From assembly GCA_030699455.1 (NCBI GenBank), contig JAUYMN010000008.1, positions 6,271 through 70,270 on the forward strand: 64,000 nt of DNA, written 5' to 3'. This document shows, in pieces, positions 5,724 to 43,705 of the stretch (position 1 is the stretch's first letter; the number at the start of each line of letters is the position of its first letter). The notes under the pieces were generated by a model. It was not told the origin of the DNA, searched no databases, and worked only from the letters and a program-made list of their open reading frames with translations. This stretch comes from Nanobdellota archaeon. GTDB lineage: Archaea > Nanobdellota > Nanobdellia > SCGC-AAA011-G17 > UBA489. The translations under genes and the position numbers were made by a program.

Positions 5724-5732
5724 TATATAAAG
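5724..5732 (+). promoter_or_regulatory. TATA box (TATATAAAG)
   Basis: About 26 nt upstream of the ATG at 5754; overlaps a GTTATAT motif at 5718-5724. Confidence 0.45.
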
Positions 5733-5753
5733 AATCAATTAAACCTCTAAAAT

Positions 5754-6638: not shown

Positions 6639-6644
6639 ATCTTG

Positions 6645-20193: not shown

Positions 20194-20275
20194 TTTTATT
20201 GTTACATTATACAAATTTTATTAAGCTTTTGTTAGTCTTGATATGTGCCCATAGTTGTGTGAGCCTTGAAAAAAA

Positions 20276-20625
20276 GTTAGGAGTGAATAAGCCACCTTCT
20301 GTTGGTCTTCTTTTCACGAAGATAAGAGTAGACCATTCCAACATTCAACTTAGCGTCTTAATGACTTGCACCAACCAGGGCTCGTTGTTTCATCGTTTCC
20401 TTTGCAAACGCTCGACTGGTTATCTTATTGTTTTCACAAACAATGTCAGGTATCATTACATACCCATGGCTTTTAATCCATGCAATCTCTTTGCTTAACA
20501 AACAAAGGCCGTGTTGTTTCTGGACGGTTGCCATCCATTTCTGGATCTTCTCAAAGAGAAGTGGTTTTTAATGGTGGGCGGACTTTCCTCAGTGTAAACA
20601 CCGATAGTTGGATGACACTCCTAAC
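20276..20625 (-). ncRNA. rnpB: RNase P RNA
   Basis: CR-I GAGGAAAGTCCGCCC and CR-V ACAGAAGGTGGCTTA. P4 pairing AAGUCCGCC/GGUGGCUU has the bulged U. P1 is a perfect 10 bp, GTTAGGAGTG/CACTCCTAAC. TTTTTAAA lies about 27 nt upstream. Confidence 0.8.
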
Positions 20626-20733
20626 TATTGTATTGGTTTAAACTGCTTTAAAAAGGTATTGAAAAGGTCCGTAGGACGACGCCCCTCTCTCTTTTTGTTT
20701 CTTTTTTCTAAAAAGAAAAGTAAGCAATCAAAA

Positions 20734-20832
20734 AATTGAATATAATTTCTGTTATGCTCTCCGAACGAAGTGAGAACCTGCAAGGCGTGGCAAAATCTCT
20801 TCGAGATTTTGCGTTCAGAAGGTCGCTCGGTG
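20734..20832 (+). repeat. junction-core repeat, full unit (core + hairpin + right arm)
   Basis: aattgaatataatttctGTTATGCtctccgaacgaagtgag, then a 10-bp stem gcaaaatctc/gagattttgc (20790-20812), then right arm gttcagaaggtcgctcgg. Confidence 0.7.
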
Positions 20833-20853
20833 GTGGGACGGTGCGCGTTTTAT

Positions 20854-21609
20854 TTAATATGGACTCTTCCAAAAATAATTGAAATATTTCATGAAACTTT
20901 CTTTAATTCTGTCAGATTCTAATACAAATGCAAAAGATTGTTTTCCCCACAAAATTTGTACTACTTTATTTCCAAAAATAATTGCTACCATGGGCACATA
21001 CATATCTTTTGGGAGTGAGCAATATTTATAGTAAGCTTTCTTGTGTTGGCTTATTTTTTCTGGTTCTAAATCTTTCAAATAAGTACCATAACTAACTAAA
21101 TCATTCATCATATGCTTTTTTTTAATTCTTCGTTCCATCCAATGTTCAAACCATACTTGTAAATTTTCAGGAACTGTTTTGTAGTTTTCAAAGCTATTTC
21201 CTCCTAACCAAAATGATTCTTTATGCTCAAGTATCTCTTCAAAAAGCGTTTTGATTGCCTCATTGCCCCTAAAAATTTCTGCCATTATTTCAGGTTTGGA
21301 GAGTTCAAAAAGTTTTTTTATGTCGGGAATTTGTTCTTCTAGTTCCTTTAATCTTTTCTCTTTTCCCTTTATTTCTTCAAGAAGCTTATTTGGGTGTGTG
21401 CATTGGTAAGTTCTCTTGCCTTTTTCAATAGTATAAGAAACAAGCCCTGCTTCTATTAATTTATTCAGAATGTCATAAATATTTCTTCGTTCTATTCCTG
21501 TTTTTTCTTGTATTTTGTTAATAGTGGATATGCCCAATTCTAGAACTGCCGAATAAACTTTGATCTGCCCATCGCTTAAACCTAATTCCTTCAGATTTTT
21601 AAGTATCAT
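20854..21609 (-). CDS. TrmB-family transcriptional regulator (paralog 2)
   Basis: MILKNLKELGLSDGQIKVYSAVLELG...RRNIYDILNKLIEAGLV. Start trimmed to 21609. Confidence 0.75.
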   Translation of the reverse strand: MILKNLKELGLSDGQIKVYSAVLELGISTINKIQEKTGIERRNIYDILNKLIEAGLVSYTIEKGKRTYQCTHPNKLLEEIKGKEKRLKELEEQIPDIKKLFELSKPEIMAEIFRGNEAIKTLFEEILEHKESFWLGGNSFENYKTVPENLQVWFEHWMERRIKKKHMMNDLVSYGTYLKDLEPEKISQHKKAYYKYCSLPKDMYVPMVAIIFGNKVVQILWGKQSFAFVLESDRIKESFMKYFNYFWKSPY

Positions 21610-21697
21610 ATGGTGTTGTATAATACCACATATATTTAAATATTTAGTCATATCAATACTATTAACAAGTAACAACAAATGTAAGGAGGTAATCAAA

Positions 21698-22147
21698 ATG
21701 AACATAAAAAAAATTTATGAAGCAGGCAAAAAAGGATTGGCGGGAATTGTTTTAGCAGGTACTCTCGCGTTAAATGGTTGTGTAGATCACCAAGAGCATA
21801 CAACTCAAGAATTGCCTTATTTTGCAGTTAAAAACATAGAAACAGTTTTGGCAATGGATCATGGAGAACGACCAAGACATGTAGAAAATGGTGTGGTTTA
21901 CACGCCAATGGTAAGATTTGACACTCAATTTCCACAATTGGAAGGAGTAAAAGCACAACAAGGAGATAAAACATACATTTTTCGGTCAAGCATGTATGAT
22001 GGACGTTTAACTGAAATAAGCAACACAGAAGGCGAAGCATATCTAAGAGTTGGAATGCTACCGGAAGAATTTAATTCCTTTAACGACGGAGTAGGAAAAG
22101 GTGCTGACACAAGCTATGCCAAGTTTATAGAAGAATTTAACAAATAA
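21698..22147 (+). CDS. lipobox lipoprotein, hypothetical
   Basis: MNIKKIYEAGKKGLAGIVLAGTLALNGC has a signal peptide and lipobox Cys. SD-like aaggagg upstream; divergent from TrmB paralog 2. Confidence 0.6.
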   Translation: MNIKKIYEAGKKGLAGIVLAGTLALNGCVDHQEHTTQELPYFAVKNIETVLAMDHGERPRHVENGVVYTPMVRFDTQFPQLEGVKAQQGDKTYIFRSSMYDGRLTEISNTEGEAYLRVGMLPEEFNSFNDGVGKGADTSYAKFIEEFNK

Positions 22148-22190
22148 AGATAAATTTTTATTTTTTTATTTTTTAACGCGCCGTCCACGT

Positions 22191-22207
22191 GGGGGGGGGG
22201 GGGGGGG
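22191..22207 (+). repeat. G17 homopolymer
   Basis: 17 consecutive G in an AT-rich genome, directly after the right inverted-repeat arm 22175-22188. Confidence 0.9.
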
Positions 22208-22232
22208 TTGGTAGGGAGAAGAGTGACCTTCT

Positions 22233-22378
22233 GAATTACGCCTAACCCTTGTTATACAAGGGTGAGGAGCGAAGCGACGAAAGCGTAGCGTCCCCAAGTG
22301 AGCGAAGCGAACGCAGCGTAAGGCACAGGGACACGTTCCATCAAGTGAGCACAGCGAACCATCCAGAACAAGAATCAA
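22233..22378 (+). repeat. junction-core repeat (variant) plus GC-rich iteron block
   Basis: gaattacgcctaacccttGTTATACaagggt places GTTATAC in the loop of a 6-bp stem. Two 17-mers follow: aagtgagcgaagcgaac (22296-22312) and aagtgagcacagcgaac (22343-22359). Confidence 0.65.
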
Positions 22379-22442
22379 GGGGACACTCTCTTGATGGTGC
22401 TTACACACTTGTAACTTTTTATTGAGAAAACGGGGGCAACTA
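22379..22442 (+). repeat. left arm of 64-bp perfect inverted repeat
   Basis: Exact reverse complement of 24939-25002. Includes the TAG stop of the TrmB gene. Confidence 0.95.
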
Positions 22443-23162
22443 CAATGGCTTTGCTATACCCCACATCACATTAAAATAATTTGTAAATGCTTTAGCACTA
22501 TCTTCACTTATGATTTGTATTGTAGTAATCTCTTTCTCTTGAATGATACCAATAATAACAACATCTTCATAGATCATATAACCCACTCGTGCTATAAAAC
22601 TTTTTGGTAGAACACGAATATTATCTTTTTTCATTATTGAGAGAAGATCTTTTACTTCTGGAATATTAGGCTGCACTGTTTTCATTTTCATCTTTTTTGC
22701 TTTTTGCTCAATGAATTTTCTAGAAAATTTTAATGCTTTAAAGAAAAATAATCCCCCGCCAACCCAGTAAACATTCTTATTTGATTTTACTGCTTCTTCA
22801 ACTACTGCTTTTGCACCCTCTAATCCAACAAAAACGTTGATTTTTGGTGATTTTTCTTCTGATTCATAAAAACTTTTTAGGTTTGGAAGAGCATCATTGA
22901 GAATTTTGTTTTTTTCTTCAAGAAATATCTTAAGACTTTCTGGATTTGTGGCTTGAAAGTATTTCACTCCATTTTTTATTTTGAAATTGACAATTCCTCT
23001 GCGAAGAAGTATATTTAGGTTGTCATAGATTGTTCTTCGGTGTACTTCTGTTTCTTTAGATAATTGAACAGCAGTAGATTCTTTTTTCTTAAGAAGAGCG
23101 AGGTAAATTTTTGCTTCTGTTTCTGAAAGTCCAATTTTTCTTAGTGAGTCTTGTAAATCCAT
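22440..23162 (-). CDS. TrmB-family transcriptional regulator (paralog 3)
   Basis: LRKIGLSETEAKIYLALLKKK...HRRTIYDNLNILLRRGIV. Confidence 0.8.
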   Translation of the reverse strand: MDLQDSLRKIGLSETEAKIYLALLKKKESTAVQLSKETEVHRRTIYDNLNILLRRGIVNFKIKNGVKYFQATNPESLKIFLEEKNKILNDALPNLKSFYESEEKSPKINVFVGLEGAKAVVEEAVKSNKNVYWVGGGLFFFKALKFSRKFIEQKAKKMKMKTVQPNIPEVKDLLSIMKKDNIRVLPKSFIARVGYMIYEDVVIIGIIQEKEITTIQIISEDSAKAFTNYFNVMWGIAKPL

Positions 23163-23262
23163 TCTAACATATATTATTCTTAGTTTTATTTAAACTTTTC
23201 GTTATTGGTGTGGAAATCCCCACACATTGATTTATATTCTTAAATATGACTACTAAAGAATA

Positions 23263-23940
23263 ATGAACACCCAACTAGATAATCCATTTAGAGAAGAGCA
23301 AATTGCAGAGATTTATTCTAGGCATAGCCATAAATATCATGCTCATCAAAGAGCATTTGAAGCATTTAGGACACTTATCCCTCTAGATAGCCGAGTTTTA
23401 GAAATTGGCGTAGGCACAGGTGCTTTTACAGATTTATTGCTTTCTGTTGGATATGATGTTAAAGGTATTGATAGATCAGAAAAAATGCTGAAAAGAGCCT
23501 CTGAACGAGTTCGTGCTTTATCTGAACATTGCGATTTGTTGGATCATGATTCTTCCGGAAAATATGATGTTGTGGTTTCGCATAGTGGTGGATTTACATT
23601 CAAAAGAGGAAAATTTGAGACGTATTATCAAGATGAAGACAATTTAGAGAAAGCACTTCAAAAAGTTCATAATGTTCTTGTTGATGAAGGAAGATTTCTT
23701 GTAGATAAAGGAGAACATGAATCCGAGATAGATTTAGGAGATGGAACAATATTCTCCGTAGAACAAGAAGATAGAGAAAAATCTCGGATTTATACTTATA
23801 CTTTCAAGCAAGGAGATAGAGAGATTACGAAGCAACAAAGACGTTTAGTATTTTTTCCAGAAGAATTGCAAAGAATGAGTTCTCCGTATTTTAATTGGAA
23901 TTTTGCAAATAAACTTTGGATAATTGGTGAAAGGATATGA
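23263..23940 (+). CDS. class I SAM-dependent methyltransferase
   Basis: VLEIGVGTGAFT motif I and DVVVSH. Confidence 0.8.
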   Translation: MNTQLDNPFREEQIAEIYSRHSHKYHAHQRAFEAFRTLIPLDSRVLEIGVGTGAFTDLLLSVGYDVKGIDRSEKMLKRASERVRALSEHCDLLDHDSSGKYDVVVSHSGGFTFKRGKFETYYQDEDNLEKALQKVHNVLVDEGRFLVDKGEHESEIDLGDGTIFSVEQEDREKSRIYTYTFKQGDREITKQQRRLVFFPEELQRMSSPYFNWNFANKLWIIGERI

Positions 23941-24941
23941 TGAATCAATTAAGACAATCATTAAGAGAATTTAAGAGTGATTTTGATAGAAAAATTGTCG
24001 CATATTTTGATGCAAAAATTGGTGAACAAGCAAATCCGGAGTTGAAAGAAGTTTTTGGTCATCTGAAAGATTATGTTTTAGCAGGGGGGAAACGTCTTAG
24101 ACCGAATATTCTTTACAGAATAAATCAAGAATTCAAACAATTAGATGGAATTGATAATGTTCTTCTTGCTTTTGAGTTTCTTCATAATTCTACGTTAATT
24201 GATGATGATGTGATAGATGAACATGATACAAGAAGAAGCAGAGCAACTCTTCCAACAGTTTATGGTGATAGAAATTATAGAGGAGATTTTGCTGCTTTGT
24301 TAAGCGCTAACTTACTAAGAAATGCAGGAATTGATTTAATTGTAAATTCAGAATTATCAAGAGATTTTCAAAGAGAATGTGGGTTGGCGTATCAAGACAT
24401 AGGAAGAAGCATAGATTTAGCACAAATTCTCGATTTAGAATATAGGGGAAGATTGAATTTATTAGAAGAAGATTATATTGCTCAAGCAGATTTAGTGGCA
24501 GCAAGATTTATCGCTTATATGTTTCAACTCTGCACACCTGAAAAATACAAAGAAGAATTTTATCAAGTAGGAAGAAATTTAGGGATTGCATTTCAGTTAG
24601 CAGATGATTTAATGGATATAGATGCAACAAAGCAGAAAGGTCGTGGTCTTGGCTCAGATATTAGAGAAGGAACACCAACATTATTATCAATTTATGCTTC
24701 AGAAAGATTAGAGGGTGTAGATAGAGAAAAGTTTAGAGGATTATTTGGCAAAAAAGATTTAACAGAGGATGAATTACAATGGATTATTACTCAATATGAA
24801 AACAGTGCAGTCATAGAAGATTCAAGAGAAAGAGTTAGAGATTACATTAATAGAGCAAATCACATTTTATCAGATGTGGGAATTCCTCAAGATCATTGGA
24901 TAGTCGCATTTGGTGAGTATAGTTTACAGCGATCTCATTAG
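23937..24941 (+). CDS. polyprenyl (trans-isoprenyl) diphosphate synthase
   Basis: First DDxxD (LIDDDVID) and second DDxxD (LADDLMD). ATGA overlap with the methyltransferase gene. Confidence 0.85.
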   Translation: MMNQLRQSLREFKSDFDRKIVAYFDAKIGEQANPELKEVFGHLKDYVLAGGKRLRPNILYRINQEFKQLDGIDNVLLAFEFLHNSTLIDDDVIDEHDTRRSRATLPTVYGDRNYRGDFAALLSANLLRNAGIDLIVNSELSRDFQRECGLAYQDIGRSIDLAQILDLEYRGRLNLLEEDYIAQADLVAARFIAYMFQLCTPEKYKEEFYQVGRNLGIAFQLADDLMDIDATKQKGRGLGSDIREGTPTLLSIYASERLEGVDREKFRGLFGKKDLTEDELQWIITQYENSAVIEDSRERVRDYINRANHILSDVGIPQDHWIVAFGEYSLQRSH

Positions 24942-25002
24942 TTGCCCCCGTTTTCTCAATAAAAAGTTACAAGTGTGTAAGCACCATCAAGAGAGTGTCC
25001 CC
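24939..25002 (+). repeat. right arm of 64-bp perfect inverted repeat
   Basis: Exact reverse complement of 22379-22442. Includes the TAG stop of the prenyl synthase gene. Confidence 0.95.
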
Positions 25003-25027
25003 CATCATTTTTAGTGTCCCGAGTAAT

Positions 25028-25130
25028 ATGTCGTATAATCGCTGTTAAACTCCCCGAACGGAACGAAGTGAGGTGAAAGCGCAACGTGGTCGACCGAAGG
25101 GAGAGGTTCGGTGCTCGCCGAAAGTTTGTT
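25028..25130 (+). repeat. junction-core repeat, full unit without payload
   Basis: atgtcgtataatcgctGTTAAACtccccgaacggaacgaagtgag. ccgaac pairs with gttcgg and aaac with gttt. Ends at the next GTTATAG (25131). Confidence 0.65.
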
Positions 25131-25200
25131 GTTATAGTAGTTGTTGAAAAATATATTATTAACTTTCAAGTAGTAAAAGAAACGAAAGATTTATAAAGTA
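25117..25200 (+). repeat. cassette 5' flank repeat A, copy 1
   Basis: About 90 percent identical by eye to 30709-30792. Contains TTGTTGAAAAATA, AACGAAAGAT and the TTTATAAAG TATA box. Identity stops 3 nt after the TATA box. Confidence 0.85.
25190..25198 (+). promoter_or_regulatory. TATA box (TTTATAAAG)
   Basis: About 25 nt upstream of the ATG at 25219. Confidence 0.5.
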
Positions 25201-25218
25201 TAGCAAATAACTATCAAT

Positions 25219-25605
25219 ATGAAAATGAATAAAACTTTAACTAGCATCGTTTTGGCAGGAGCTTTAGCTCTTAGTGGCTGTAGTGGAAAAGTCGACGATT
25301 CTAGATATGATTTCAAGGGAAAACTTGGAGATGAACAGGTAGAATTTATACGACAAGGCAATTTTTTGGTCTCCTCTGTAGATGATGGGTTATATTTAAC
25401 AGTTACAAAAGCAGATGGAAAAACTATAACTTATATCGACAGAGGAAATGATTTGAAACTAGATGAAGTAATAATCGGATACGAAGTTTATATAAATGAT
25501 GCTGTTGGACAAAACGCATTAGAATTGGCACAACAACAATTTGATGGTTATTTGACAAAAATTCTTGAATATAAACAGCAAAAAGCTGTTGATGCAATCA
25601 AGTAA
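25219..25605 (+). CDS. lipobox lipoprotein, hypothetical
   Basis: MKMNKTLTSIVLAGALALSGC has a signal peptide and lipobox. Confidence 0.6.
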   Translation: MKMNKTLTSIVLAGALALSGCSGKVDDSRYDFKGKLGDEQVEFIRQGNFLVSSVDDGLYLTVTKADGKTITYIDRGNDLKLDEVIIGYEVYINDAVGQNALELAQQQFDGYLTKILEYKQQKAVDAIK

Positions 25606-25763
25606 ATCTTTCGTTCTATAATTTTTATTTTTCAACAATTTCATTAAAATTTTGTTAGGCAAAGTTACGAAGTAATTTTGTGAAAGTTTTCTGTTATGAT
25701 TTTAACGAAGATAACAACATTAGAATTTTTGGTTTTAACCTCTGTGAGGCGAGCCCCGAATTG
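25606..25763 (+). repeat. cassette 3' flank repeat B, copy 1
   Basis: Starts immediately after the stop codon and is near-identical to 31127-31283. ATCTTTCGTT and TATTTTTCAACAA are inverted copies of elements in repeat A. Contains a degenerate core at 25693. Confidence 0.85.
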
Positions 25764-25856
25764 AACTTAATGCCTGTTATATTCTTGAACGGAACGAAGT
25801 GTAATGAGACGAGCAAAGCGAAGAGTTTTGCGTTAGCAAGATTGTACATAATCGCT
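25759..25856 (+). repeat. junction-core repeat, full unit without payload
   Basis: aattgaacttaatgcctGTTATATtcttgaacggaacgaagtg, hairpin gcaaa/tttgc, and right arm gcgttagcaagattgtacataatcgct abutting the next GTTATAT. Confidence 0.65.
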
Positions 25857-25921
25857 GTTATATTCTTCGAATGAAATGAGGCCAAAATCTGAAGGATTTT
25901 GAGTTTCTGATGGCACAAATT
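25841..25921 (+). repeat. junction-core repeat, left arm of the hicBA cassette
   Basis: attgtacataatcgctGTTATATtcttcgaatgaaatgag, hairpin caaaatc/gattttg (25883-25901), then the left inverted-repeat arm tttctgatggcacaaatt (25904-25921). Confidence 0.65.
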
Positions 25922-25929
25922 ATATAAAT
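25921..25929 (+). promoter_or_regulatory. TATA box (TATATAAAT) for hicB
   Basis: About 26 nt upstream of the ATG at 25951, directly after the left inverted-repeat arm. Confidence 0.45.
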
Positions 25930-25950
25930 CATTACATATGGAATAATATT

Positions 25951-26163
25951 ATGAAATATAGAATAACAATGGAACAAGACGAAAAAGGCATTTATGTTGT
26001 AGAATGTCCAATTCTTCCTGGATGTATATCTGAAGGTTTAACTAGAAAGGAGGCCTTAGATAATATTAAAGATGCTATTAAAGGATATATAGACAGTCTA
26101 AAAAAGCATAATGAGCCAATACCTCTATCAATTGATGAGGAAATGGTGGAAGTAAATGCCTAA
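25951..26163 (+). CDS. hicB: HicB-family antitoxin
   Basis: 70 aa, YVVECPILPGCISEGLTRKEALDNIKDAI (UPF0150/HicB fold pattern). Overlaps the hicA start. Confidence 0.8.
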   Translation: MKYRITMEQDEKGIYVVECPILPGCISEGLTRKEALDNIKDAIKGYIDSLKKHNEPIPLSIDEEMVEVNA

Positions 26164-26385
26164 ACTTCTTTCGAATCTTTCTGGCTTAAAACTTGTAAAA
26201 TTATTTTCTAAATTAGATTATGAATAGATCATCAAACCGGCAGTCATATAATATTAAGACAGAATAAATATCCATTTAGAAGGTTAACTATACCAAAACA
26301 TAAGTCACTAGCAAAAGGCACATTAAGAGCAATTATAAAACAATCTGGACTAACAAAAGAGGAATTTTTAAAGTTTCTAACCTAA
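26156..26385 (+). pseudogene. hicA: hicA toxin, frameshifted
   Basis: MPKLLSNLSGLKLVKLFSKLDYE then TAG at 26225. The homologous remainder (GSHIILRQ...TIPKHKSLAKGTLRAIIKQSGLTKEEFLKFL) continues in the -1 frame from 26224 to 26385. Confidence 0.7.
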
Positions 26386-26459
26386 TTGTGCCATCAGAAA
26401 TTGTACATAACTTCTGCTATATTGTCTGGGGTTTATCCCCAGATTAACCCGTTAGGGTT
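26384..26459 (+). repeat. right arm of the hicBA cassette plus degenerate junction core
   Basis: aattgtgccatcagaaa is the inverted partner of 25904-25921. Then ttgtacataacttctGCTATAT, hairpin tctgggg/ccccaga (26425-26443), and aacccGTTAgggtt. Confidence 0.6.
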
Positions 26460-26661
26460 GAAGTATGACGCAAGAACCAACATTAAGGAGTTTTGAACAA
26501 ATTGACCGTAACTGATTAGCTGGCGAGACTAAGCCACAGTTGCTAATAGGTTGCCTTTCATAATGGGATGCTGTATGGCTTCAGAAAATTACAAGAGAAG
26601 CTATTGAAGGGAATAAGGAGAAAAGTACGAAGCCGAGATTGATTTAGACATCATCTTTTGG

Positions 26662-27588
26662 CTAATTCCATTTGAGCATCTCATTATAAAATGCTTCTGC
26701 TTGTTTTTGATCAAATTTATCTGGGTCTCCTAAACACCTTGTTTCAACAAAATTCTTGTTCTCATCGTAAATGTTCCATATAACATACTTGTAGGTCTTT
26801 CCTATATCTCCAGTTTCAGAAATTATTGTTTTTTCAATGTATGCATTAACATTGCCCATTCCAAAGAAATAAGTGTAACCTCCGCAGTAGTACTTGTTAA
26901 GGTTTTCACCTTCTTTAGTTCCCTTTCTACAATTAGCAGATCCTTTTATTGTCCATCCATCATAAGTTTTCCCACTTATATCTGTGGTTTCATAAGGTGT
27001 TCCTTCATTGTGAAATTTCATTTCCACATTAATCTGTGGGCAATTAGATTTAAGGGTTTTTGAAAATTTCTCAGTACCTTTTTTGAATATACCTTCAAAC
27101 TGGTTATTTGATTTTGTTGTCAGATTGGTTTCAAAATTAGAACTACTCCCATAATGAATTTCTTGTTGATCTGAATTGTGTATCAGGTATAATGTAATTG
27201 CAATCACAAAAATCCACAAAAATAAATTTGAATGATCCATTCTAGATATCCTTACAAGATATGCTACCAAAACCAGTCCAACAGCTGTAAAGATAATGCT
27301 TGCCACATAATCAATAATTCCAAGATAATTAGCAAGAATAAATAGCACCCATATCGCACCAGTATTTATTACTCCCCAAAACAAAAAGGATTTGTCAACA
27401 ATAAATTTTTGTTTTGTAGTAAATATCTTTGCAAATTTTGCTAATATTGTTAATCCAAAACCCATAAAAATCAGCTGAAAGAAACTGTTCTCAATGTTTA
27501 AGTAATTTAAGAGATAACCCAAAACATACAATGAAATAGAGTGAATGACAATCCAAATTAAAGACCATTTCAAACTAAAGTTTTTCAT
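26662..27588 (-). CDS. membrane protein with extracytoplasmic C-terminal domain, hypothetical
   Basis: 308 aa with about 5 N-terminal TM helices, then a soluble Cys-containing domain. Confidence 0.5.
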   Translation of the reverse strand: MKNFSLKWSLIWIVIHSISLYVLGYLLNYLNIENSFFQLIFMGFGLTILAKFAKIFTTKQKFIVDKSFLFWGVINTGAIWVLFILANYLGIIDYVASIIFTAVGLVLVAYLVRISRMDHSNLFLWIFVIAITLYLIHNSDQQEIHYGSSSNFETNLTTKSNNQFEGIFKKGTEKFSKTLKSNCPQINVEMKFHNEGTPYETTDISGKTYDGWTIKGSANCRKGTKEGENLNKYYCGGYTYFFGMGNVNAYIEKTIISETGDIGKTYKYVIWNIYDENKNFVETRCLGDPDKFDQKQAEAFYNEMLKWN

Positions 27589-27960
27589 TTTTGTTGCGTT
27601 TCATATTCTGGAATTCTTCTTTTCACTTGCTTCCGCCCACATGAACCCAATTTTTTTTGAAGATAGAAATCATCTTTTCTCTAGCTCCATAATCTGTCTT
27701 AATTAAGAGATATAAAAAGTTTGTCTATGGATATTTTGCAAAGTTAAAGAATGGTATCACCTTTTTTCTTAAGAAAAAGAGTGGAAATGGGAGCAAACTC
27801 CTAAAAGGAGGTACCCACCATGAATGGCATTTGAGACAGCAAATGCCATTCAAGAGATATAACAATTATTACTAGTAAATTATTCCGTTCACATGATTTC
27901 TAAGTTTTATTCTATCCATAATGCCAAAATTGATAGGACGTTCGTACTTCAATGTATGTA

Positions 27961-28509
27961 TCAAGTAAAAATTTCCATAATTTTTTCAATAGAAATTTCT
28001 TGGTTAATTATGGATAAAAGAATTATTAAAAAAATAATAACAATGATTGATAGAATTATTTTTGATGCTATGGTTTTTCTTTCATATTTTTCTTCATTCG
28101 GCTGGTTTTTTTGTTCTATAGTTGGTGTTGGTTTTATGTAATCTCCTTTTTTAAATTTCTTAGTAAATTTTTCAATATCCCTATCCAATTGTTCATTCTT
28201 AAATTTTTTTTCTATTGATACTTTTTTTCTTCTGTTTTTTATTTTATTTATTCTGCCATAATCTCCATTGCATCCATGTTCTTCTGGAAGTCTGCAATTT
28301 TCACAATGAGATTCATCACAGTAATTACACACAAAAGGTATATGATTTATTTCTTTTTCACAAGAATCACACTTATTTTTAGGTCTTGGTTTTCTTCTCC
28401 GCCCCATTCTTCTTTGGTTCCAAGCATGTTCATCAAAATCCTCTTCTTCATACTCTTCCCTATCATTCTCATCTTCTTCTCTATCCCATCTCTTAGAAAA
28501 AGTTCCCAT
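27961..28509 (-). CDS. AN1-like zinc-finger protein with C-terminal membrane anchor
   Basis: CDSCEKEINHIPFVCNYCDESHCENCRLPEEHGC is close to the AN1 pattern. Charged N-terminus and a C-terminal TM. Confidence 0.55.
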   Translation of the reverse strand: MGTFSKRWDREEDENDREEYEEEDFDEHAWNQRRMGRRRKPRPKNKCDSCEKEINHIPFVCNYCDESHCENCRLPEEHGCNGDYGRINKIKNRRKKVSIEKKFKNEQLDRDIEKFTKKFKKGDYIKPTPTIEQKNQPNEEKYERKTIASKIILSIIVIIFLIILLSIINQEISIEKIMEIFT

Positions 28510-28511
28510 TT

Positions 28512-29252
28512 TCAGCAGAAATTTTGTGTTACGTAGATATCATACCAATTTCCTTCTGAACTCTCAAGAACAGAAACTCCAATTCCATGGTTCCTATGGT
28601 GGGGAGTAAGTATATTTTCTCTATGTCCTGGGCTACTCATCCAACCATTGACTATATTTTCGGCTACTTCTCCCATTGTACAAGGATGGGAATGAGTAGC
28701 ACCTACAACGATCAGTTCTCTAGTGATGTCATAATAATCCAATGCAAGATTCTCAGCTCCCTCGGATAAATAGGTTTCGTATTGTTGTGTAGTAATTTCA
28801 TAAATGCCATATTCACCTTCTTCTATCTCAGTTTCTTCTGGATAGTATATTGTATCGATTGGAACTGAACAATAATAATTTGCTTGTTTGTATCTATAGT
28901 CAAATCTATTTCCTTCAAGATCTTCATGTTCAAAATGTTTGTTTTTGGCCATATAGTCACTATACTTTCTTGCAATTTGGTTTAATTCTTCATCCCATTT
29001 TAACATATTAAGTTTGGCATTCTTTCTTTCAACCCTTACCTTCCTATGTATCAACAATTCTAATTCTTCAACATTGATATCTTCACATTGAATATTGCTT
29101 TCAAAAGAGTTGGTTTCATCTTTATAGCTTTCTGTGCTAATATCATCAAAATCCAAAAAATAAATACCTACCAAAAAAATAGAACCAATAACTAAAAGTG
29201 GAATAATCCGGCTTGTTGGAATTATAACTAAAAAGCCTTTCTTTCTATACAT
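28512..29252 (-). CDS. CAP/SCP/PR-1-like domain protein, membrane-anchored
   Basis: N-terminal TM, with KWDEELNQIARKYSDYM, GAENLA and NGWMSSPGHRENIL motifs. Confidence 0.75.
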   Translation of the reverse strand: MYRKKGFLVIIPTSRIIPLLVIGSIFLVGIYFLDFDDISTESYKDETNSFESNIQCEDINVEELELLIHRKVRVERKNAKLNMLKWDEELNQIARKYSDYMAKNKHFEHEDLEGNRFDYRYKQANYYCSVPIDTIYYPEETEIEEGEYGIYEITTQQYETYLSEGAENLALDYYDITRELIVVGATHSHPCTMGEVAENIVNGWMSSPGHRENILTPHHRNHGIGVSVLESSEGNWYDIYVTQNFC

Positions 29253-29475
29253 TCTGCCATTGACGGGATATAGGTCTCTTTTAAATTTTTAGGTCCTGGG
29301 TAACTGATTAGCTACTTTTGAAACGGAGTTCAATTCAGCCTTCTTTTGTAGAATTTTTGTATTATACGGACAAAAAGGATGTTAAATTAGCCTCTATTTG
29401 ACATAGCTAATCAGTTACAATTGACCAAAAGATTTAAATATGTGTAATCACATTTCTACACATAGGTGATCAAAA

Positions 29476-29700
29476 ATGACTAATTTAACATTAGCAATTC
29501 CAGAAGATTTGCATGAAAAAATGAAACATCACTCTGAAATAAGATGGAGTGAAGTAGTGAGAAAATCAATCTCTCAGAAGATTGAATTATTAGATGCAAT
29601 GAATAAAATTGCAAGTAAAAGTAAGTTAACAAAGAAAGATGTAGATGAAATCTCAAAGAAAATTAAAGCAGAAACATTTGATGAGTTAAACAAAAAATGA
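29476..29700 (+). CDS. vapB: VapB-like antitoxin (ribbon-helix-helix-like)
   Basis: 74 aa, LTLAIPEDLHEKMK N-terminus. ATGA overlap with the PIN gene. SD-like GGTGAT upstream. Confidence 0.6.
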   Translation: MTNLTLAIPEDLHEKMKHHSEIRWSEVVRKSISQKIELLDAMNKIASKSKLTKKDVDEISKKIKAETFDELNKK

Positions 29701-30116
29701 TCATCATTATTGATGTTAATGTTTTTCTTTCTGCTTTAATTAAGGATTCAACTTCAAGAGAAATTTTGTTAACATACGAGCAAGAATTTTGTTTTCCAGA
29801 GAGATCATTGCAGAAAATACGAAAGCATAAATCTCTTATTCAAAAGAAGTCTGAACTTTCTGATTTAGATTTTCTGAAGTTGTTTCATTCTTTATTAAAG
29901 TTTATCAGAATCATTCCTGATGAAGAATTATTAGATCAATGGGATGAAGCGATGAAAATAATGGCACACATTGATGAAGAAGATGTGACTTTTATTGCAG
30001 CAGCATTGAGTCAGAATAATGCAGTAATCTGGTCTGATGATAAGCATTTTGAGAAACAGGATAAAGTGTTTACACTAAAAACAAAAGATTTGGTCAATTT
30101 ATTTGAGAATAACTAA
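29697..30116 (+). CDS. vapC: PIN-domain toxin
   Basis: IIIDVNVFLSALI N-terminal acidic residue, EEDVTFIAAA, and WSDDKHF. Confidence 0.75.
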   Translation: MIIIIDVNVFLSALIKDSTSREILLTYEQEFCFPERSLQKIRKHKSLIQKKSELSDLDFLKLFHSLLKFIRIIPDEELLDQWDEAMKIMAHIDEEDVTFIAAALSQNNAVIWSDDKHFEKQDKVFTLKTKDLVNLFENN

Positions 30117-30156
30117 TTTCAAAACGCCTCTCTTTTCTTTGTTGGTTCTGAGTAAT

Positions 30157-30235
30157 ATTCAATATAATGCCTGTTATGTTCTCCGAACGAAGTGAGGACA
30201 AGCGAACGAAGTGAGTGAAGAGTTCAAAAAAGACT
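30157..30235 (+). repeat. junction-core repeat with duplicated iteron
   Basis: attcaatataatgcctGTTATGTtctccgaacgaagtgag. cgaacgaagtgag occurs twice (30184-30196, 30203-30215). Then the left inverted-repeat arm ttcaaaaaagact (30223-30235). Confidence 0.65.
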
Positions 30236-30280
30236 TTCTATGTGGTAATATATCTCAAAAGATATAAACTCCTTAAAAAT

Positions 30281-30595
30281 TTATCTTGGAGAATAAGGTA
30301 ATTGTGGGACAGAATATCGTGTTTTAAATTCTCTATTTATTCTTTCGATCTTGTTATGAATGTACTCCATTTGACCATATAGCCGACAATCTGCGATACA
30401 GTTCTCTTTACCACCACTATCTTGAAACGATTGGTGTGCTTCTTTGAAATCATTATCTAACATTTCTATAAGGGCGTCTAAACCATGGGCTGATATTTTA
30501 TGTTTCATAACTACTAATAAGTTACAAATTATATATAAATCTAACGGTTTTTCTATGGTTCTGACGGGCTTTCTCATGATAATTGAGCTTATCAT
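30281..30595 (-). CDS. hypothetical protein
   Basis: 104-aa ORF bracketed by the 13-bp inverted repeat 30223-30235/30604-30616. On the minus strand, ATTATATTC from the core lies about 27 nt upstream of the start. Confidence 0.4.
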   Translation of the reverse strand: MISSIIMRKPVRTIEKPLDLYIICNLLVVMKHKISAHGLDALIEMLDNDFKEAHQSFQDSGGKENCIADCRLYGQMEYIHNKIERINREFKTRYSVPQLPYSPR

Positions 30596-30614
30596 GATGC
30601 TACAGTCTTTTTTG

Positions 30615-30722
30615 AATTGAATATAATTTCTGTTAGTTTCTCCGAATGAAATGAGAACGAGATTTTAGTGCAACGATGCTGAAGGCAAAAATCTCGAGTT
30701 CTGGGCTTGCCGAAAATTCGTT
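30615..30722 (+). repeat. junction-core repeat, full unit without payload
   Basis: aattgaatataatttctGTTAGTTtctccgaatgaaatgag. Stem cgagatttt (30658-30666) / aaaatctcg (30688-30696) with loop agtgcaacg... and an extrahelical ag. Right arm gcttgccgaaaattcgtt. Confidence 0.7.
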
Positions 30723-30792
30723 GTTATTGTAGTTGTTGAAAAATAAGTTATTAACTCTCAAGTGGTAAAAGAAACGAAAGATTTATAAAGTA
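30709..30792 (+). repeat. cassette 5' flank repeat A, copy 2
   Basis: Partner of 25117-25200. Confidence 0.85.
30782..30790 (+). promoter_or_regulatory. TATA box (TTTATAAAG)
   Basis: About 29 nt upstream of the ATG at 30815. Confidence 0.5.
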
Positions 30793-30814
30793 ATTAGTTT
30801 TCGTAAGTATTACA

Positions 30815-31126
30815 ATGAAACTATATCAAAAAATTGCAACATATACATTTATTGGTGCTGCAAGTTTAGGATTATTTGGTTGTGATAAAAAAGATTCACA
30901 ACGAGCAACTGAACAACCATTACCAGCTGAAATGAGAACATATGAAGTTAGCCCATATGTATTTGGTAAATCTAAAATTAATTATGACCATTTACCAAAT
31001 CTAGGATGGTCGGACATGATTGGGGTAACTTGCGGAGATTTAGATGGTGATGGAGATTTAGAAGTGATTGTTGCAACAAAAGATGGATTAACAATTTACG
31101 AAAACAGAACAGAACAAAAAAGATAA
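30815..31126 (+). CDS. lipobox lipoprotein with FG-GAP-like repeat
   Basis: IGAASLGLFGC signal and lipobox-like Cys, plus CGDLDGDGDLEVIVATKDG. Confidence 0.6.
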   Translation: MKLYQKIATYTFIGAASLGLFGCDKKDSQRATEQPLPAEMRTYEVSPYVFGKSKINYDHLPNLGWSDMIGVTCGDLDGDGDLEVIVATKDGLTIYENRTEQKR

Positions 31127-31283
31127 ATTCTTTCGTTCTATAATTTTTATTTTTCAACAATTTCTTTAAATTTTTGTTAGACAAAGTTACGAAGTAATTT
31201 TGTGAGTTTTCTTTTATGATTTTAACGAAGATAACAACATTAGAATTTTTGGTTTTAACCTCTGTGAGGTGAGCCCCGAATTG
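31127..31283 (+). repeat. cassette 3' flank repeat B, copy 2
   Basis: Partner of 25606-25763. Similarity ends at gagccccgaattg, the last recognisable array sequence. Confidence 0.85.
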
Positions 31284-31478
31284 TGTTGAACAATATATAT
31301 GCGAAGAAGCACGAATTCCTATATTTTAGACGTTATGAAGGCATTATTTGGAAGATTGAGTTAGAAAAACTGTTTTCTTTTATGTGTAGTAAAAACAACT
31401 TATTTTTGACTTTTAACCGCATTTTCTTCGATTTTTTTGAATTAAGTTTTTTTAAGAGTTTATAGTAACTGGTTTTAA

Positions 31479-32184
31479 TGGCTTTGGATGTGCTTTATAA
31501 CATGAAAAGAGAGTTGTTTAGGAGGAAGCTGTCTCCAAGAACTGTTAAAACATACCTGCTGTATGTTAGATTATTTCTTCGAGCAAATAAAGACATCAAG
31601 AAACTCGCGAATCTGCTTTAGGCTTCTTCGCAGTATTTACTACAATTCTTGATTAAATCTAACCATCAATTCTCACTTAAGTCTTTTTTATCAACCGCCA
31701 TCATAACTTTCATAAAATCATTAGGAACCAGAAGTTTATCAAACATAGATGACGTTAACTTTACAGCTGGTGAAAAGGCTTAAATAATTTTGCGGGATGG
31801 ATTGAGTACACTGAAGCGCTACAATAATGGTCTACTCAATTTTAATCTTTATGGGAGAAGAAATTCAGAATCAATACACTAGTGGGGTATGAACTTAAAA
31901 TTATTGCTAAAGGCAATGCGCCTGGAATTTGACAGGTTAATTCTACAACATATGCTCCTGACGAAATTGCAGTTTCTGCCATGAAGTATGTTTAAGATGC
32001 TATTGAAAATGATGGAGCATTAATGAGGCAGTCTGATAGAATTACTACAATAGACAGGCCTATGATTAAAATTGTTTGCTCTGATAGTTACACATTAGTG
32101 CACCCAGCAACTATTGAAGATATGTTAAAGTACAGAAGAGGGCATGGGACAATGGCAAGAAAGCTGGCTCCATCAAGACCATAA
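31479..32184 (+). pseudogene. tyrosine recombinase/integrase, heavily decayed
   Basis: N-terminal SAM-like domain signature KLSPRTVKTYLLYVRLFL, then an in-frame TAG at 31620-31622. The frame continues (FLIKSNHQFSLKSFLSTAIITFIKSLG) to a TAA at 31782. Downstream fragments in shifted frames resemble catalytic-domain blocks (LLNFNLYGRRNSES; LKIIAKGNAPG; RRGHGTMA). No ORF of 60 aa or more across 31.47-32.19 kb. Confidence 0.6.
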
Positions 32185-32189
32185 CAGGC

Positions 32190-32963
32190 TTAAACAAATT
32201 CTATGAATAACAGGAGATACATAATTGCTATGCCTAATAAAAATATTGACAATTCTGATAATGATTGTGTAATGCCTTTGTCTTTATGCAGATGTATCTG
32301 CGGTATTAAATCAGATGCAGCTATGTAAATAAATCCTCCAGATGTTATTGGTATAAGATAATTCGGCAGTGATGATAAATTTGAGCTTAATAACAAAGTT
32401 ATGACTGCTCCTAAAATTGCGGTCAATGCTGTTATAAAATTAAGAAATACTGCTCTTGTTTTTTTAAAGCCTGCATGCAATAATACTCCAAAATCTCCAA
32501 TTTCCTGCGGTATTTCGTGCAATATGACTGCTATTGTTGTTGCAATTCCAAGAGGAACGCTTACTATGAAACTTCCTGCAATCAATATTCCATCAATAAA
32601 ATTGTGCAATGAATCTCCAACAAGGTTCATTATGGCGTATGAAGGTGTTTGTTTTTTGTGATGGTGCAAGTGACAATGCCCCCAATGAACAAATTTTTCT
32701 AATATGAAAAATATTATGATCCCCAATAAAATAAATAATGAAATATTTAGTGTAAATCCTGATTCTGCTGCTTCAGGGATTAAGTGTATGAATGCATCTC
32801 CAAGCATAACTCCTGCTGAAAGACTTACTAATAAAATTATTGTCTTATCTAGATGATTTTTTTTGAATGAAATGCTTGCAAGACCAACAAGGGAAATTAA
32901 GCTTACTATAATCACGCTTAGTAAGGTATACCCCCAAATGTTCACCTCTTGAATACCAAACAT
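32190..32963 (-). CDS. ZIP-family metal transporter
   Basis: HNFIDG, HEIPQEIGDFG, a His-rich loop HCHLHHHK, and multiple TMs. Confidence 0.85.
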   Translation of the reverse strand: MFGIQEVNIWGYTLLSVIIVSLISLVGLASISFKKNHLDKTIILLVSLSAGVMLGDAFIHLIPEAAESGFTLNISLFILLGIIIFFILEKFVHWGHCHLHHHKKQTPSYAIMNLVGDSLHNFIDGILIAGSFIVSVPLGIATTIAVILHEIPQEIGDFGVLLHAGFKKTRAVFLNFITALTAILGAVITLLLSSNLSSLPNYLIPITSGGFIYIAASDLIPQIHLHKDKGITQSLSELSIFLLGIAIMYLLLFIEFV

Positions 32964-41208: not shown

Positions 41209-42162
41209 TTAACGAAGTAAATAGATAAGTCGAGTTATTAGTAGTCGCGGGCTGAATACCTCGTTACCTCGGTACTTACACCCCGACCCTATCAAACCTG
41301 TATTCTTCAGGTACTCTTAGTCTATTTTCGCGGCGGGTTTCGAGCTTAGATGCTTTCAGCTCTTATCCCTTGGCGCGTAGCTGCCCAGCCTGCCCTGTCG
41401 GACAACTGGTAAACCAGTGGCGCCGAACCTTTGTTCCTCTCGTACTAAAAGATCCTTCCACTCAGACTTTGACACCCCCAGTAGATATCATACAAACTGT
41501 CTCACGACGTTCTTAACCCAGCTCACGATCCGCTTTAACCGGTGAACACCCGTACCCTTGGAAGCTTCTGCACTTCCAGGATGCGAAGAGCCGACAACGA
41601 AGTAGCAAGCAGCGCCGTCGATCTGAACTCTTAGGCGCTACAACTCAATTATCCCCGAGATAGCTTTTCTGTCATACCTAGCCCTCATCAATAAGGACAT
41701 AGGGGTTCGCTAGACCAGACTTTCGTCTCTGAGTACCTTAACGGTTGGAACTCAGTTAGGCAAGCTTTTGCTCTTGCACTCTACTTTGGATTTCTAAACC
41801 AAATGAGCTTACCTTTGGGCCCCACTGATACCTTTTCAGCGGGGTGCCGCCCCAGCCAAACTACCCACCAGTCGATGTCCTCGTATACGAGTTAGTGATA
41901 CAACACAAAGAAAGTGGTATTACACGGTCGCCTACGATTAGCTCTAACGAACTAACCATCAAACAGCTCCCACTTATACTATATACTAAGTATTATACCA
42001 CAACGACAAGCTGTAGTAAAGTTCTACGGGGTCTTCGCTTCCCACTGGAGGTCACTGGCCTTCACACCAGTATAGTATATTCAGAGGACACTAGTTTGGG
42101 ACAATGGGACCCTCGTTACACCATTCATGCAAGCCGACATTCAATCGGCAGGGTATTGCGCT

Positions 42163-42855
42163 CAATTTGTTACTACATTATTTCTAATGTGACTAAACCA
42201 TTTCTGTTTAGCTCCTTACATCGCTGCAAGGATCGGACTATATCATCACTTGTTACCAAGTGTTTGGCGTGTAGTCTCTGAGGATTCTAGATATTTGAGT
42301 CGCGGTCTGCGATTCATTTTAGAAATTAGGTTTGCTATTTTATCAAGCCCTTCTTTTGTTAAGTGTTCTTTATTGTTCATCATGTGAATTACGTCAGAAA
42401 AAACTTCAAAGTTATTTTTCTTTACTGTGTGTAAAGGATATTTCTTAAAAAAAGTTATTATTTTATTTAAGTTATTTAATCCTCTAACACGAAATTCTTT
42501 TCTGTCGTTGTTGTTAATTCCAACTGAACCAAATCCAAAATAAGATTTAATCTTATGGAGAACTTGTTCACTTCTTTCATGTTGAACAACCCTAAACTCT
42601 GGAAGTACTTGCCATCCGAGTGTCATTTTTTCAAGCTTATTGATTGCTATATGAAAACAACCCTCGCCGTCAACAAATCCTGATATCCAGTTTGCATCTA
42701 GTCTTTCCTGCTGATTGTCTGCACTCACCACATTTTCACCTTTTGTTTTTGATATTAATAAACATCATTACAAATTAATCGAAGTTAATTCGAAAGGTAG
42801 TGTGAGATACTCAGATGTTCCAGCATATAGCCAAATTTTACTAAGGCAACCTTTC
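42163..42855 (-). mobile_element. group I intron at 23S position about L1931 (E. coli numbering)
   Basis: Exons rejoin as CTCTTAAGGT|AGCGCAATACC. The 5' exon ends in U and the intron ends in G. P1 forms UAAGGU with GCCUUA, with a U-G wobble at the splice site. Contains a LAGLIDADG ORF. Confidence 0.75.
42246..42731 (-). CDS. LAGLIDADG homing endonuclease (single-motif)
   Basis: 161 aa, WISGFVDGEGCF. Lies inside the rRNA intron. Confidence 0.85.
   Translation of the reverse strand: MVSADNQQERLDANWISGFVDGEGCFHIAINKLEKMTLGWQVLPEFRVVQHERSEQVLHKIKSYFGFGSVGINNNDRKEFRVRGLNNLNKIITFFKKYPLHTVKKNNFEVFSDVIHMMNNKEHLTKEGLDKIANLISKMNRRPRLKYLESSETTRQTLGNK

Positions 42856-43670: not shown

Positions 43671-43705
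<35 letters not shown>

Follow-up and report, generated by a model that had tools for sequence, protein, structure and literature searches.

The question raised by this locus is why gene after gene in one short region of an archaeal chromosome should stand between inverted repeats (IRs). The window, by which we mean the whole 64,000-nt stretch analysed here (Nanobdellota archaeon, contig JAUYMN010000008.1) and to which all coordinates refer, has a base composition of approximately 33% G+C, with archaeal rRNA, a gene for RNase P RNA and promoters of the TATA type; L-numbers denote the related loci with which it was compared. IR-bracketed genes occupy a main array at 20.7-31.3 kb, between the RNase P RNA gene on the left and a decayed xerA gene on the right, and a second mini-array of the same anatomy at 5.3-6.3 kb. 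Both regions are probably chromosomal cassette arrays of an integron-like, Xer-linked recombination system of the Woese- and Pacearchaeales (DPANN), a reading which we hold with moderate confidence. The nine IR pairs which an earlier note on this DNA had listed were all recovered, with 14/17, 64/64, 10/10, 13/13, 17/18, 14/14, 13/13, 9/9 and 13/13 positions matched.

What successive modules share is a junction of approximately 45 nt, consisting of AATTGNAYATAA, NNNCTG and then TTATRYTCTCCGAACGAAGTGAG (core form AATTGNAYATAA-NNNCTG-TTATRYTC). It comprises a left arm ...TTGNAYATAA, a centre of 4-6 nt ending in CTG and a right arm TTATRYTC.... Junctions were called by nhmmer with a junction profile; nine copies lie in the main array region and 2-3 at 5.3-6.3 kb, giving at least 11 in the window, in two arrays and all on the + strand. 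Those of the main array, with the site that ends it, are as follows.

20734-20762, + strand: junction 1, AATTGAATATAA-TTTCTG-TTATGCTCTCC (E=3e-6)
22234-22262, + strand: junction 2, AATTACGCCTAA-CCCTTG-TTATACAAGGG, R''-like part GCCTAAC (E=5e-4)
25026-25055, + strand: junction 3, ATATGTCGTATAA-TCGCTG-TTAAACTCCCC (E=4e-5)
25759-25787, + strand: junction 4, AATTGAACTTAA-TGCCTG-TTATATTCTTG (E=2e-6)
25840-25868, + strand: junction 5, GATTGTACATAA-TCGCTG-TTATATTCTTC (E=1e-6)
26399-26426, + strand: junction 6, degenerate, AATTGTACATAA-CTTCTG-CTATATTG, GCT replacing GTT (E=4e-5)
29419-29444, + strand: degenerate junction of uncertain status, left arm AATTGACC... present and right arm not recognisable (read from the sequence)
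30155-30184, + strand: junction 8, ATATTCAATATAA-TGCCTG-TTATGTTCTCC (E=7e-6)
30615-30643, + strand: junction 9, AATTGAATATAA-TTTCTG-TTAGTTTCTCC (E=1e-4)
31279-31303, + strand: terminal site, AATTGTGTTGAAC|AATATATATGCG, cassette homology ending after ...GAAC

The terminal site is a putative attI/dif-like end of the array. The first 28 nt of the junction have the geometry of dif, in which two imperfect inverted arms of 11 bp, the left one with ATAA at its end and the right one with TTAT at its start, enclose 6 bp (for example TTGAATATAAT/TTCTG../TTATGCTCTCC), and the distance from TTG to G|TTA is a constant 15 nt in the window and in six metagenome junctions. Among species representatives of GTDB, the exact junction pattern was present only in DPANN, at eight loci which all belong to Woese-, Pace- or Nanoarchaeota, and a scan of viral contigs for the pattern gave no matches. 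In the window the R''-like (..ATAAT / GCCTAAC) and R'-like (GTTAT..) boxes are 4-5 nt apart and have no L boxes. Many metagenome relatives carry a long form of the junction, 18-190 nt wide (GTTTAAC-ATC-L''...L'-CT-GTTAAAC), the attC-like hairpins being of 70-190 nt. In its fold R'' pairs with R' at the base, the L boxes are paired as well and 2 nt bulge out (z=-6.6 and -4.2); on sequence, this anatomy is that of an attC site. The short form would then correspond to the long form minus the interior between two TTAA repeats. A canonical attC upstream of each GTTAT box was also considered and was rejected, the R''/L'' partner being absent upstream in the window.

Each cassette between two junctions is made up, in order, of the right arm, a conserved CCGAACGAAGTGAG element, a small hairpin, a leader, its own promoter, one or more open reading frames (ORFs), a trailer and the left arm, and leader and trailer are reverse-complementary over 10-150 nt. 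The cassettes of the main array, followed by those of the mini-array, are listed below.

20752-22251: cassette 1, TrmB (20854-21705, - strand; Pfam TrmB 8e-15) and lipoprotein-like ORF (21698-22147, + strand); outer IR 20812-20828/22221-22235, inner IR 20833-20849/22175-22188
22252-25043: cassette 2, TrmB (22440-23162, - strand), methyltransferase (23263-23940, + strand) and polyprenyl (geranylgeranyl diphosphate, GGPP) synthase (23937-24941, + strand); perfect 64-bp IR 22379-22442/24939-25002
25045-25775, + strand: cassette 3, A-type shell with lipoprotein ORF 25219-25605; nested IRs 25105-25119/25748-25760, 25141-25153/25626-25638 and 25181-25190/25606-25615; payload-specific IR 25204-25217/25541-25554 (12/14)
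25777-25856, + strand: ORF-less mini-cassette of 81 nt between junctions 4 and 5, with right arm, CGGAACGAAGTG element, small hairpin and left arm
25858-26415, + strand: cassette 5, HicB antitoxin (25951-26163; Pfam HicB_lk_antitox 2.7e-10) and a disrupted ORF downstream; IR 25904-25921/26384-26400 (17/18; 13/13 in the anchored test described below)
26417-29432: cassette 6, minus-strand genes for a membrane protein (26662-27588), a zf-AN1 protein (27961-28509) and a CAP-domain protein (28512-29252); IR 26508-26521/29405-29418 (14/14), with a third copy of the arm at ~29300
29445-30172, + strand: VapBC-like toxin-antitoxin module, 29476-29700 and PIN 29697-30116 (Pfam PIN_2 2e-22)
30174-30631: cassette 8, 104-aa ORF (30281-30595, - strand); IR 30223-30235/30604-30616 (13/13)
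30633-31290, + strand: cassette 9, second A-type shell, with lipoprotein/FG-GAP ORF 30815-31126; IRs 30698-30711/31268-31280, 30733-30745/31148-31160 and 30773-30781/31129-31137
5324-6339, + strand: second mini-array, junctions 5324-5351, 5573-5601 and 6311-6339, two cassettes
Mini-array cassette with small transmembrane ORF: IR 5389-5399/5565-5574
Mini-array cassette with 174-aa ORF 5754-6278: IR 5661-5672/6300-6311

The payloads are thus toxin-antitoxin modules, TrmB regulators, lipoproteins and small ORFs, and such payloads are typical cassette cargo. An ORF-less cassette, here of 156-158 nt, also occurs in three copies in L003. With respect to single cassettes, 19 consecutive G at 22190-22208 separate the inner from the outer IR arm in cassette 1; this run may have arisen as an artefact of assembly or of homopolymer reading, or may be a tract prone to form G-quadruplexes. 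The GGPP synthase of cassette 2 has 100% identity to a protein of a 'Nanoarchaeota archaeon' metagenome-assembled genome (MAG), and its operon lies inside the cassette array; genes of this class should be essential for the lipids of archaea. Downstream of HicB, the ORF at 26167-26385 (+ strand) has two stop codons in the frame tried, and the presumed HicA partner may be disrupted.

Whether leader and trailer of one cassette belong together was measured by an anchored test, in which the 13-mer abutting the left arm of the next junction was taken and its reverse complement was sought in the 200 nt after the previous junction. The cognate leader matched at 13, 13, 12, 11 and 11 of 13 positions in five of the six testable cassettes, while the match to non-cognate leaders reached at most 10/13; 20,000 random draws in the window gave P(>=11)=0.007, P(>=12)=8.5e-4 and P(13)=5e-5. 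The sixth cassette is the carrier of the 64/64 pair. When cognate trailer and leader were joined as in an excised circle, the mean gain in single-stranded DNA folding was -7.6 kcal/mol versus -1.9 +/- 2.1 for non-cognate combinations; the circular junction of cassette 1 gained -14.8 kcal/mol, and that of the HicB cassette had z=-6.3. The rate of IRs inside and outside the array was also compared, as the earlier note had suggested, by a gene-by-gene control which is coarse because internal intergenic regions split multi-gene cassettes: outside, a flanking IR with z>=4 was present in 1/25 gene units. This single unit (5754-6278) is the cassette of the second mini-array.

The IRs had been regarded as private to each payload. 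This proved incorrect, as the same leader/trailer IR set brackets approximately 30 unrelated ORFs in other genomes, and the IRs are therefore specific to a shell family. A-type shells, which were traced in metagenome contigs by a 21-nt trailer motif, are present twice in the window and recur in L002, L003 and 68 contigs from metagenomes, where their upstream and downstream neighbours differ. The 34 non-identical A-type shells house about 30 unrelated ORFs of 74-312 aa between a conserved leader of ~170 nt, which includes the TATA box and part of the 5' untranslated region (5'UTR), and a conserved trailer of ~160 nt, which begins at the stop codon. Leader and trailer together form one long interrupted palindrome, with junction-proximal arms GTTCGGGGCTCGCC/GGCGAGCCCCGAA, intermediate arms GAAAATTCGTTGTTAT/ATAACAAC..GAATTTTC followed by TTGTTGAAAAATA/TATTTTTCAACAA, and innermost arms GATTTATTCT/AGAATAAATC at the ORF borders. 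Leader arms of types a, a', b and c were accompanied by the matching trailer type in 25/27 typed units, and GGGCTTGCC/GGCAAGCCC versus GGGTTTGCC/GGCAAACCC is a compensatory pair with a C:G to T:A change. At least nine junctions were counted in L003, a locus of Pacearchaeota, where hand placement of the junctions shows IRs around 4-5 of the six payload cassettes; regex-based junction calls in other loci are noisy and gave 3/11 cassettes at >=11/13.

A further, payload-specific IR was found in 9/32 A-type payloads in a survey of L013-L080 and the window (25204-25217/25541-25554), pairing the 5'UTR just before the ATG with the last 20-50 nt of the coding region, as in L015 (CTCAATTGTATCA/TGATACAATTGAG). 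Since both arms lie in the transcript, a role at the level of RNA is possible. The homologous lipoproteins of L035 and of window position 25219 use different paired sequences in this IR, which, when the two are set side by side, looks like compensatory evolution.

The unit that is exchanged, and the position of the crossover, can be read from copies of the same shell in different surroundings. In A-type copies similarity starts and stops inside the junction, with neighbours differing on both sides, and the unit is therefore leader plus payload plus trailer. IR-bracketed cassettes recur in relatives, and the breakpoints fall in the junction and not at the inner (y) arms. At ten loci including the window the array ends in ...TAAC or ...GAAC (...TAA in L012). 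The distance to xerA, which lies downstream, is 130-220 nt in most of them and larger in L009, and the sequence after the array end, ATATATA.GCGAAG..GAATTC, is common to the window and L056 only. The centre TCGCTG is kept with the right arm TTAAACT in 15/16 cases, in at least seven different left contexts. From this linkage, together with the breakpoints and array ends in the junction, it follows that the crossover would lie within the short centre, probably at its left border (TAA|N). The alternative of a crossover where the leader-side IR arm begins (G|TTC...), with the hairpin assigned to the upstream cassette, was rejected because right arm, hairpin and the inner repeat arm yR stay together while upstream neighbours vary. 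The terminal site was also tried as a palindromic dif, which fits at 8/11 positions in L002 but only at 3-6/11 elsewhere.

The proposal of the earlier note that recombination occurs inside a palindrome, rather than at its outer edge, agrees with these observations, as the conserved joint lies within a palindrome whose halves end the modules. So does the contrast it drew with the canonical integron, which is cut at the outer R' box, since complementarity here runs 10-150 nt past the crossover point. On the model that we propose, trailer, junction and leader of an excised circle would form one long imperfect palindrome, capable of a hairpin or cruciform, with the crossover site in mid-palindrome. 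A tyrosine recombinase of XerA/IntI type, encoded just past the array end, would cut in the short centre, likely at TAA|N, which on the opposite strand would be the canonical G|TT of integrons. Integration would cut this palindrome near its middle, so that its two halves would be left to bracket the payload as an IR; the IRs would thus be the outer part of each cassette family's recombination site. Complementarity of the arms could be kept by selection or by gene conversion, and inversion of payloads would be a side effect. Recombination, circle formation, the strand cut and the role of extended-palindrome folding are what we infer from the arrays, and cognate specificity, covariation and folding suggest that the arms stabilise a folded or cruciform site.

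The candidate for this recombinase in the window is a gene remnant.

31478-31981, + strand: decayed tyrosine recombinase gene (psi-xerA), Pfam Phage_int_SAM_4 7e-4, frame broken by stop codons

Only the N-terminal SAM-like part of the remnant is recognisable (27-47 residues), and tblastn against the intact L002 protein covered residues 13-39 and nothing else; no second xerA was found in the window. A junction-like AATTTGTTTAAGCCTGTTATGGTCTTG lies inverted at 32172-32200 (- strand), at the 3' end of the decayed gene, and is 76% complementary to 20214-20242 (+ strand); it may be the trace of a rearrangement that truncated xerA. The intact L002 homologue (6467-7324, 285 aa) matched VchIntI4 (2a3v) at 2.5e-41 and XerA (5hxy, 4a8e) at 1.6e-37 and 6e-36. 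It scored 216.8 bits with NCBIfam XerA_Arch NF040815 (cut-off 220) and 207.9 with the integron integrase model TIGR02249 (cut-off 265). The IntI-specific insert of ~40 residues is absent, residues 185-205 (21 aa) facing IntI4 184-245 (62 aa) unaligned, and the C-terminal NVQSPLDSLP resembles the IntI tail. In nine loci (window, L002, L009, L010/L011, L012, L022, L048, L056 and L079) xerA follows shortly after the end of the array and shares its strand. Homologues of xerA are common in Woesearchaeota, and the gene is followed by hef in L009 and L012 and by a ZIP transporter gene in the window.

Several observations weigh against reading these arrays as sites of cassette recombination. The recombinase gene beside the window array is a pseudogene, and the conserved synteny of xerA with hef points to a housekeeping Xer and not to an integrase dedicated to the array. 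All window junctions have the short form and may be relics left by deletions in attC-like hairpins, not active sites; two of them (26399, 29419) are degenerate. No convincing bracketing IR was found for the VapBC module, its IR score of 17 being at background level, and the folding energy of the A/T-rich stem of cassette 8 was not significant (z=-1.1). The 64-bp IR sits 22 nt in from the junction and encloses the GGPP-synthase operon, a third genome has the GGPP-synthase gene among tRNA-synthetase genes and without TrmB, and the perfection of the pair may come from inversion plus gene conversion instead of from a site function. The crossover is only bracketed, and type-a leaders carry three different centres. 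Excision and integration would have to be deduced from the arrays, as neither circles nor empty and filled alleles of one site were seen. The window's own copy of the array may be a fossil.

The earlier note had accounted for the IRs by nested insertion, in which circles carrying their own palindromic site y invade the apex of a resident palindrome x and empty x units remain. This is unlikely, even though the IRs are nested, the leaders of two A-type cassettes self-fold (CCCCGAAC...GTTCGG), and the constant A-type shell has undergone some 30 ORF exchanges, with a further IR at the ORF borders of 9/32 payloads, as apex insertion would leave. The array does not read xL-yR-payload-yL-xR; it reads leader(n)-payload(n)-trailer(n), junction, leader(n+1) and so forth. 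As regards the flanking arms held to be shared, the junction is conserved, but the 'right arm' or xR, GTTCGGTGCTCGCC (25105-25119, 30698-30711), is confined to the A-type family. It pairs at 12/13 positions with GGCGAGCCCCGAA (25748-25760; 31268-31280), which is the far end of its own lipoprotein cassette, and thus better than with xL. The units 25044-25130 and 30632-30722 are therefore leaders: two of the three sites taken to be unoccupied run straight into their own promoter and ORF, and only 25777-25856 is ORF-less. In addition, similarity extends over the leader, the flanks of the payload and the trailer; its breaks are in the junction, not at the y arms, and no leader-trailer shell lacking an ORF was found among the 68 contigs. 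What is left of the nesting idea, once the resident palindrome is given up, is a weaker form in which ORFs are exchanged inside a constant shell, nine of 32 with the extra IR.

It has also to be considered whether the IRs serve inversion of the payload (orientation switching), or persist through repeated inversion with gene conversion, and are unrelated to a cassette site. Inversions do occur. The TrmB/methyltransferase/GGPP-synthase module (22379-25002) is colinear in L081, but in L082 its orientation relative to leader and trailer is reversed and the breakpoints lie within the arms of the IR. An A-type unit of L003/L054 likewise has its ORF together with the promoter turned round between TTGTTGAAAAAT arms. 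The IRs are accordingly recombinogenic, and gene conversion in the course of inversions is the best explanation for the 64/64 identity. However, each payload has its own promoter, so that inversion would entail no switch in expression, and only two inversions were found among more than 40 units. Arms of 10-13 bp are poor substrates for homologous recombination, and the fixed offset of the outer arms to the junction (...RAA|TTG) is left unexplained. As a full account of the IRs, inversion is accordingly somewhat less probable again.

We consider it very unlikely that the IRs are transcription signals, either a promoter-terminator context which insulates cassettes from read-through or elements for pairing between the 5'UTR and 3' end of the RNA. 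On either side the inner A/T-tract arms TTGTTGAAAAATA/TATTTTTCAACAA do read as runs of T on the strand that leads outwards, the TATA-proximal region and the stop codon do fall in the innermost arm of the shell (GATTTATTCT/AGAATAAATC), and the payload-specific IRs are within the transcript. The outer arms, in contrast, are G+C-rich, have no T-runs, abut the junction and lie upstream of the TATA box, and therefore outside the cassette's own transcript; moreover, arms covary as DNA complements across families with the same promoter. Finally, independent transposons or elements resembling miniature inverted-repeat transposable elements, with terminal IRs in one hotspot, would fit the presence of an own, sequence-variable terminal IR on each module, but this is most improbable given that no module contains a transposase, no target-site duplications are visible at the arm ends, the arms are at a fixed offset from a shared, co-oriented junction, and one IR set is found with some 30 different ORFs.

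If the arrays are read as an integron-like, Xer-linked system, they can be compared with integrons first. There is a tandem array of small, mostly single-gene cassettes rich in toxin-antitoxin modules and unknown ORFs; the boxes GTTA... (~GTTRRRY) and ...TAAC (~RYYYAAC) are, in relatives, placed around a bulged, imperfect hairpin; a cassette begins with bases that can pair with the box at its opposite end; and ORF-less cassettes occur. A conserved site family is combined with variable ORFs, as with the repeats (VCRs) of Vibrio, and on the minus strand the order is divergent recombinase gene, terminal site and array with the proposed crossover at G|TT (nine loci for the divergence). In contrast to integrons, the recombinase lacks the IntI-specific additional domain around patch III and falls below the integron-integrase cut-off, and the window junctions, which are without L boxes and without a loop, resemble simple sites in double-stranded DNA. 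Cassettes here have their own TATA promoters and ORFs on both strands, whereas those of integrons are mostly promoterless, co-oriented and expressed from the Pc promoter. A further difference is that complementarity extends 10-150 nt past the R boxes, and each integrated cassette is therefore IR-bracketed. To our knowledge, IR-bracketed integrated cassettes have not been reported for attC sites, and in the literature searched (XerA/attC, Woesearchaeota integrons, DPANN cassettes) no description of IR-bracketed cassettes of this architecture was found.

Archaeal integrons have been defined by an IntI with the extra domain together with folded attC sites, and clusters of attC sites lacking integron-integrases (CALINs; 2-8 attCs, without IntI) were reported in MAGs of Woese- and Pacearchaeales (Ghaly et al. 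2022, PMC9668308). These published CALINs may include the long-form sites seen here; accessions of the compared loci are absent from the supplement of that study (PMC9668308), which lists MAGs without site sequences.

The Xer/dif systems, which act in chromosome-dimer resolution, are approached from the other side, in that the recombinase is near the XerA_Arch threshold (216.8 vs 220 bits) and shows xerA-hef synteny, and the junction has the 11-6-11 geometry ...ATAA-N6-TTAT.... Archaeal dif has been described as flanked by inverted repeats, as single-copy and, in Thermococcales, as not adjoining xerA (archaeal XerA: Cortez et al. 2010, PMC2958812). Here, as opposed to the single-copy dif, about ten co-oriented copies are found within 10 kb and next to xerA, and the right arms precede a conserved CCGAACGAAGTGAG element and hairpin which have no counterpart in dif. 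A site adjoining the xer gene is shared with XerS/difSL, a module with a single recombinase (PMC2731167). Mobile elements that integrate by making use of Xer (IMEXs) resemble the cassettes in having no recombinase of their own; none was found in any cassette, and the junction arms travel with different cassettes. IMEXs enter dif by way of a dif-like site and come to lie between hybrid sites. Known IMEXs are, however, phages or islands of several kb and not single-ORF cassettes; a 2021 review of archaeal tyrosine recombinases does not mention IMEX. The pdif (xrs) modules of Acinetobacter are likewise small modules of adaptive and toxin-antitoxin genes bounded by 28-bp sites of Xer type, with the host Xer implicated (PMC11705084), but their Xer sites are usually inverted around the module (PMC11705084), whereas the junctions here are direct and the IRs are additional and outside the junction. 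Moreover, pdif modules are on bacterial plasmids and the present cassettes on archaeal chromosomes.

The statement of the earlier note that no described system has this signature was therefore too strong, since dif is the counterpart of the junction in its 11-6-11 geometry, attC that of its form in relatives (R''=GTTTAAC ... R'=GTTAAAC), and the neighbouring recombinase is XerA/IntI-like. The system is best filed with the integron/Xer kind, its unusual features being the extended palindromic shells and the exchangeable ORFs. We suggest tentatively, and with less than even confidence, that it represents a previously undescribed Xer-linked cassette platform of DPANN (Woese- and Pacearchaeales) between Xer/dif and integrons. 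Such a platform would combine a XerA-type recombinase, IntI-like yet without the IntI domain, beside a terminal site and self-expressed cassettes, with junctions ranging from dif-like to attC-like and, in every cassette, a palindromic shell (promoter, arms, stop codon) around an exchangeable ORF; the excised strand could fold into a rod with recombination site and ORF at opposite tips. If this were true, it would be a living model for the origin of integrons from Xer and for the attachment of ORFs to recombination sites.

The relevance of these arrays lies in two open questions on integrons, their origin from Xer-type recombination and the joining of unrelated ORFs to attC sites, as one lineage shows a recombinase intermediate between XerA and IntI, sites from dif-like to attC-like, and a palindromic shell that hosts dozens of unrelated ORFs. 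Short and long sites and arm mutants would be testable substrates for an archaeal recombinase, and the arrays would be a route of gene exchange in DPANN, whose small genomes are otherwise poor in known mobile elements. Even if the arrays are inert, the IRs mark cassette ends and inversion breakpoints, which is useful in annotation.

A number of minor observations were made within and around the arrays. The apical loops of leader hairpins (e.g. 30664-30690, 5612-5640, 20779-20790) and attC-like interiors repeat GTGCAAYG and CTGCAAG (L012, L024, L025), and tandem GAACGAAGTGAG repeats immediately follow the right arm; both may be binding sites for accessory factors. TrmB-family regulators recur as payload or neighbour, with three genes in the window alone (4490-5233, 20854-21705 and 22440-23162) and others in L010 (144-854), L012 (15239-15952), L081 and L082. 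The first of these is directly upstream of the mini-array at 5.3-6.3 kb. Contigs L009, L010, L013, L019, L028, L036 and others often stop in or beside cassettes or just upstream of xerA, and such frequent contig ends are consistent with assemblies breaking at a repeated, variable array.

The left boundary of the main array is formed by the RNase P RNA gene, which is not part of the cassette system.

20276-20625, - strand: archaeal RNase P RNA gene (Rfam RF00373, 134.7 bits vs gathering score 84)

It was the sole match in an Rfam scan of the region, in which the junctions matched nothing. Between this gene and the first junction lies the motif TCCGTAGGACGACGCCCC (20669-20686), which recurs to the left of the first junction of L002. 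Elsewhere in the window, a tRNA is located at 45939-46012 (- strand), and the match to large-subunit rRNA at 41218-44819 (- strand) spans 3602 nt vs a model of 2987 positions, which suggests at least one insertion or intron.

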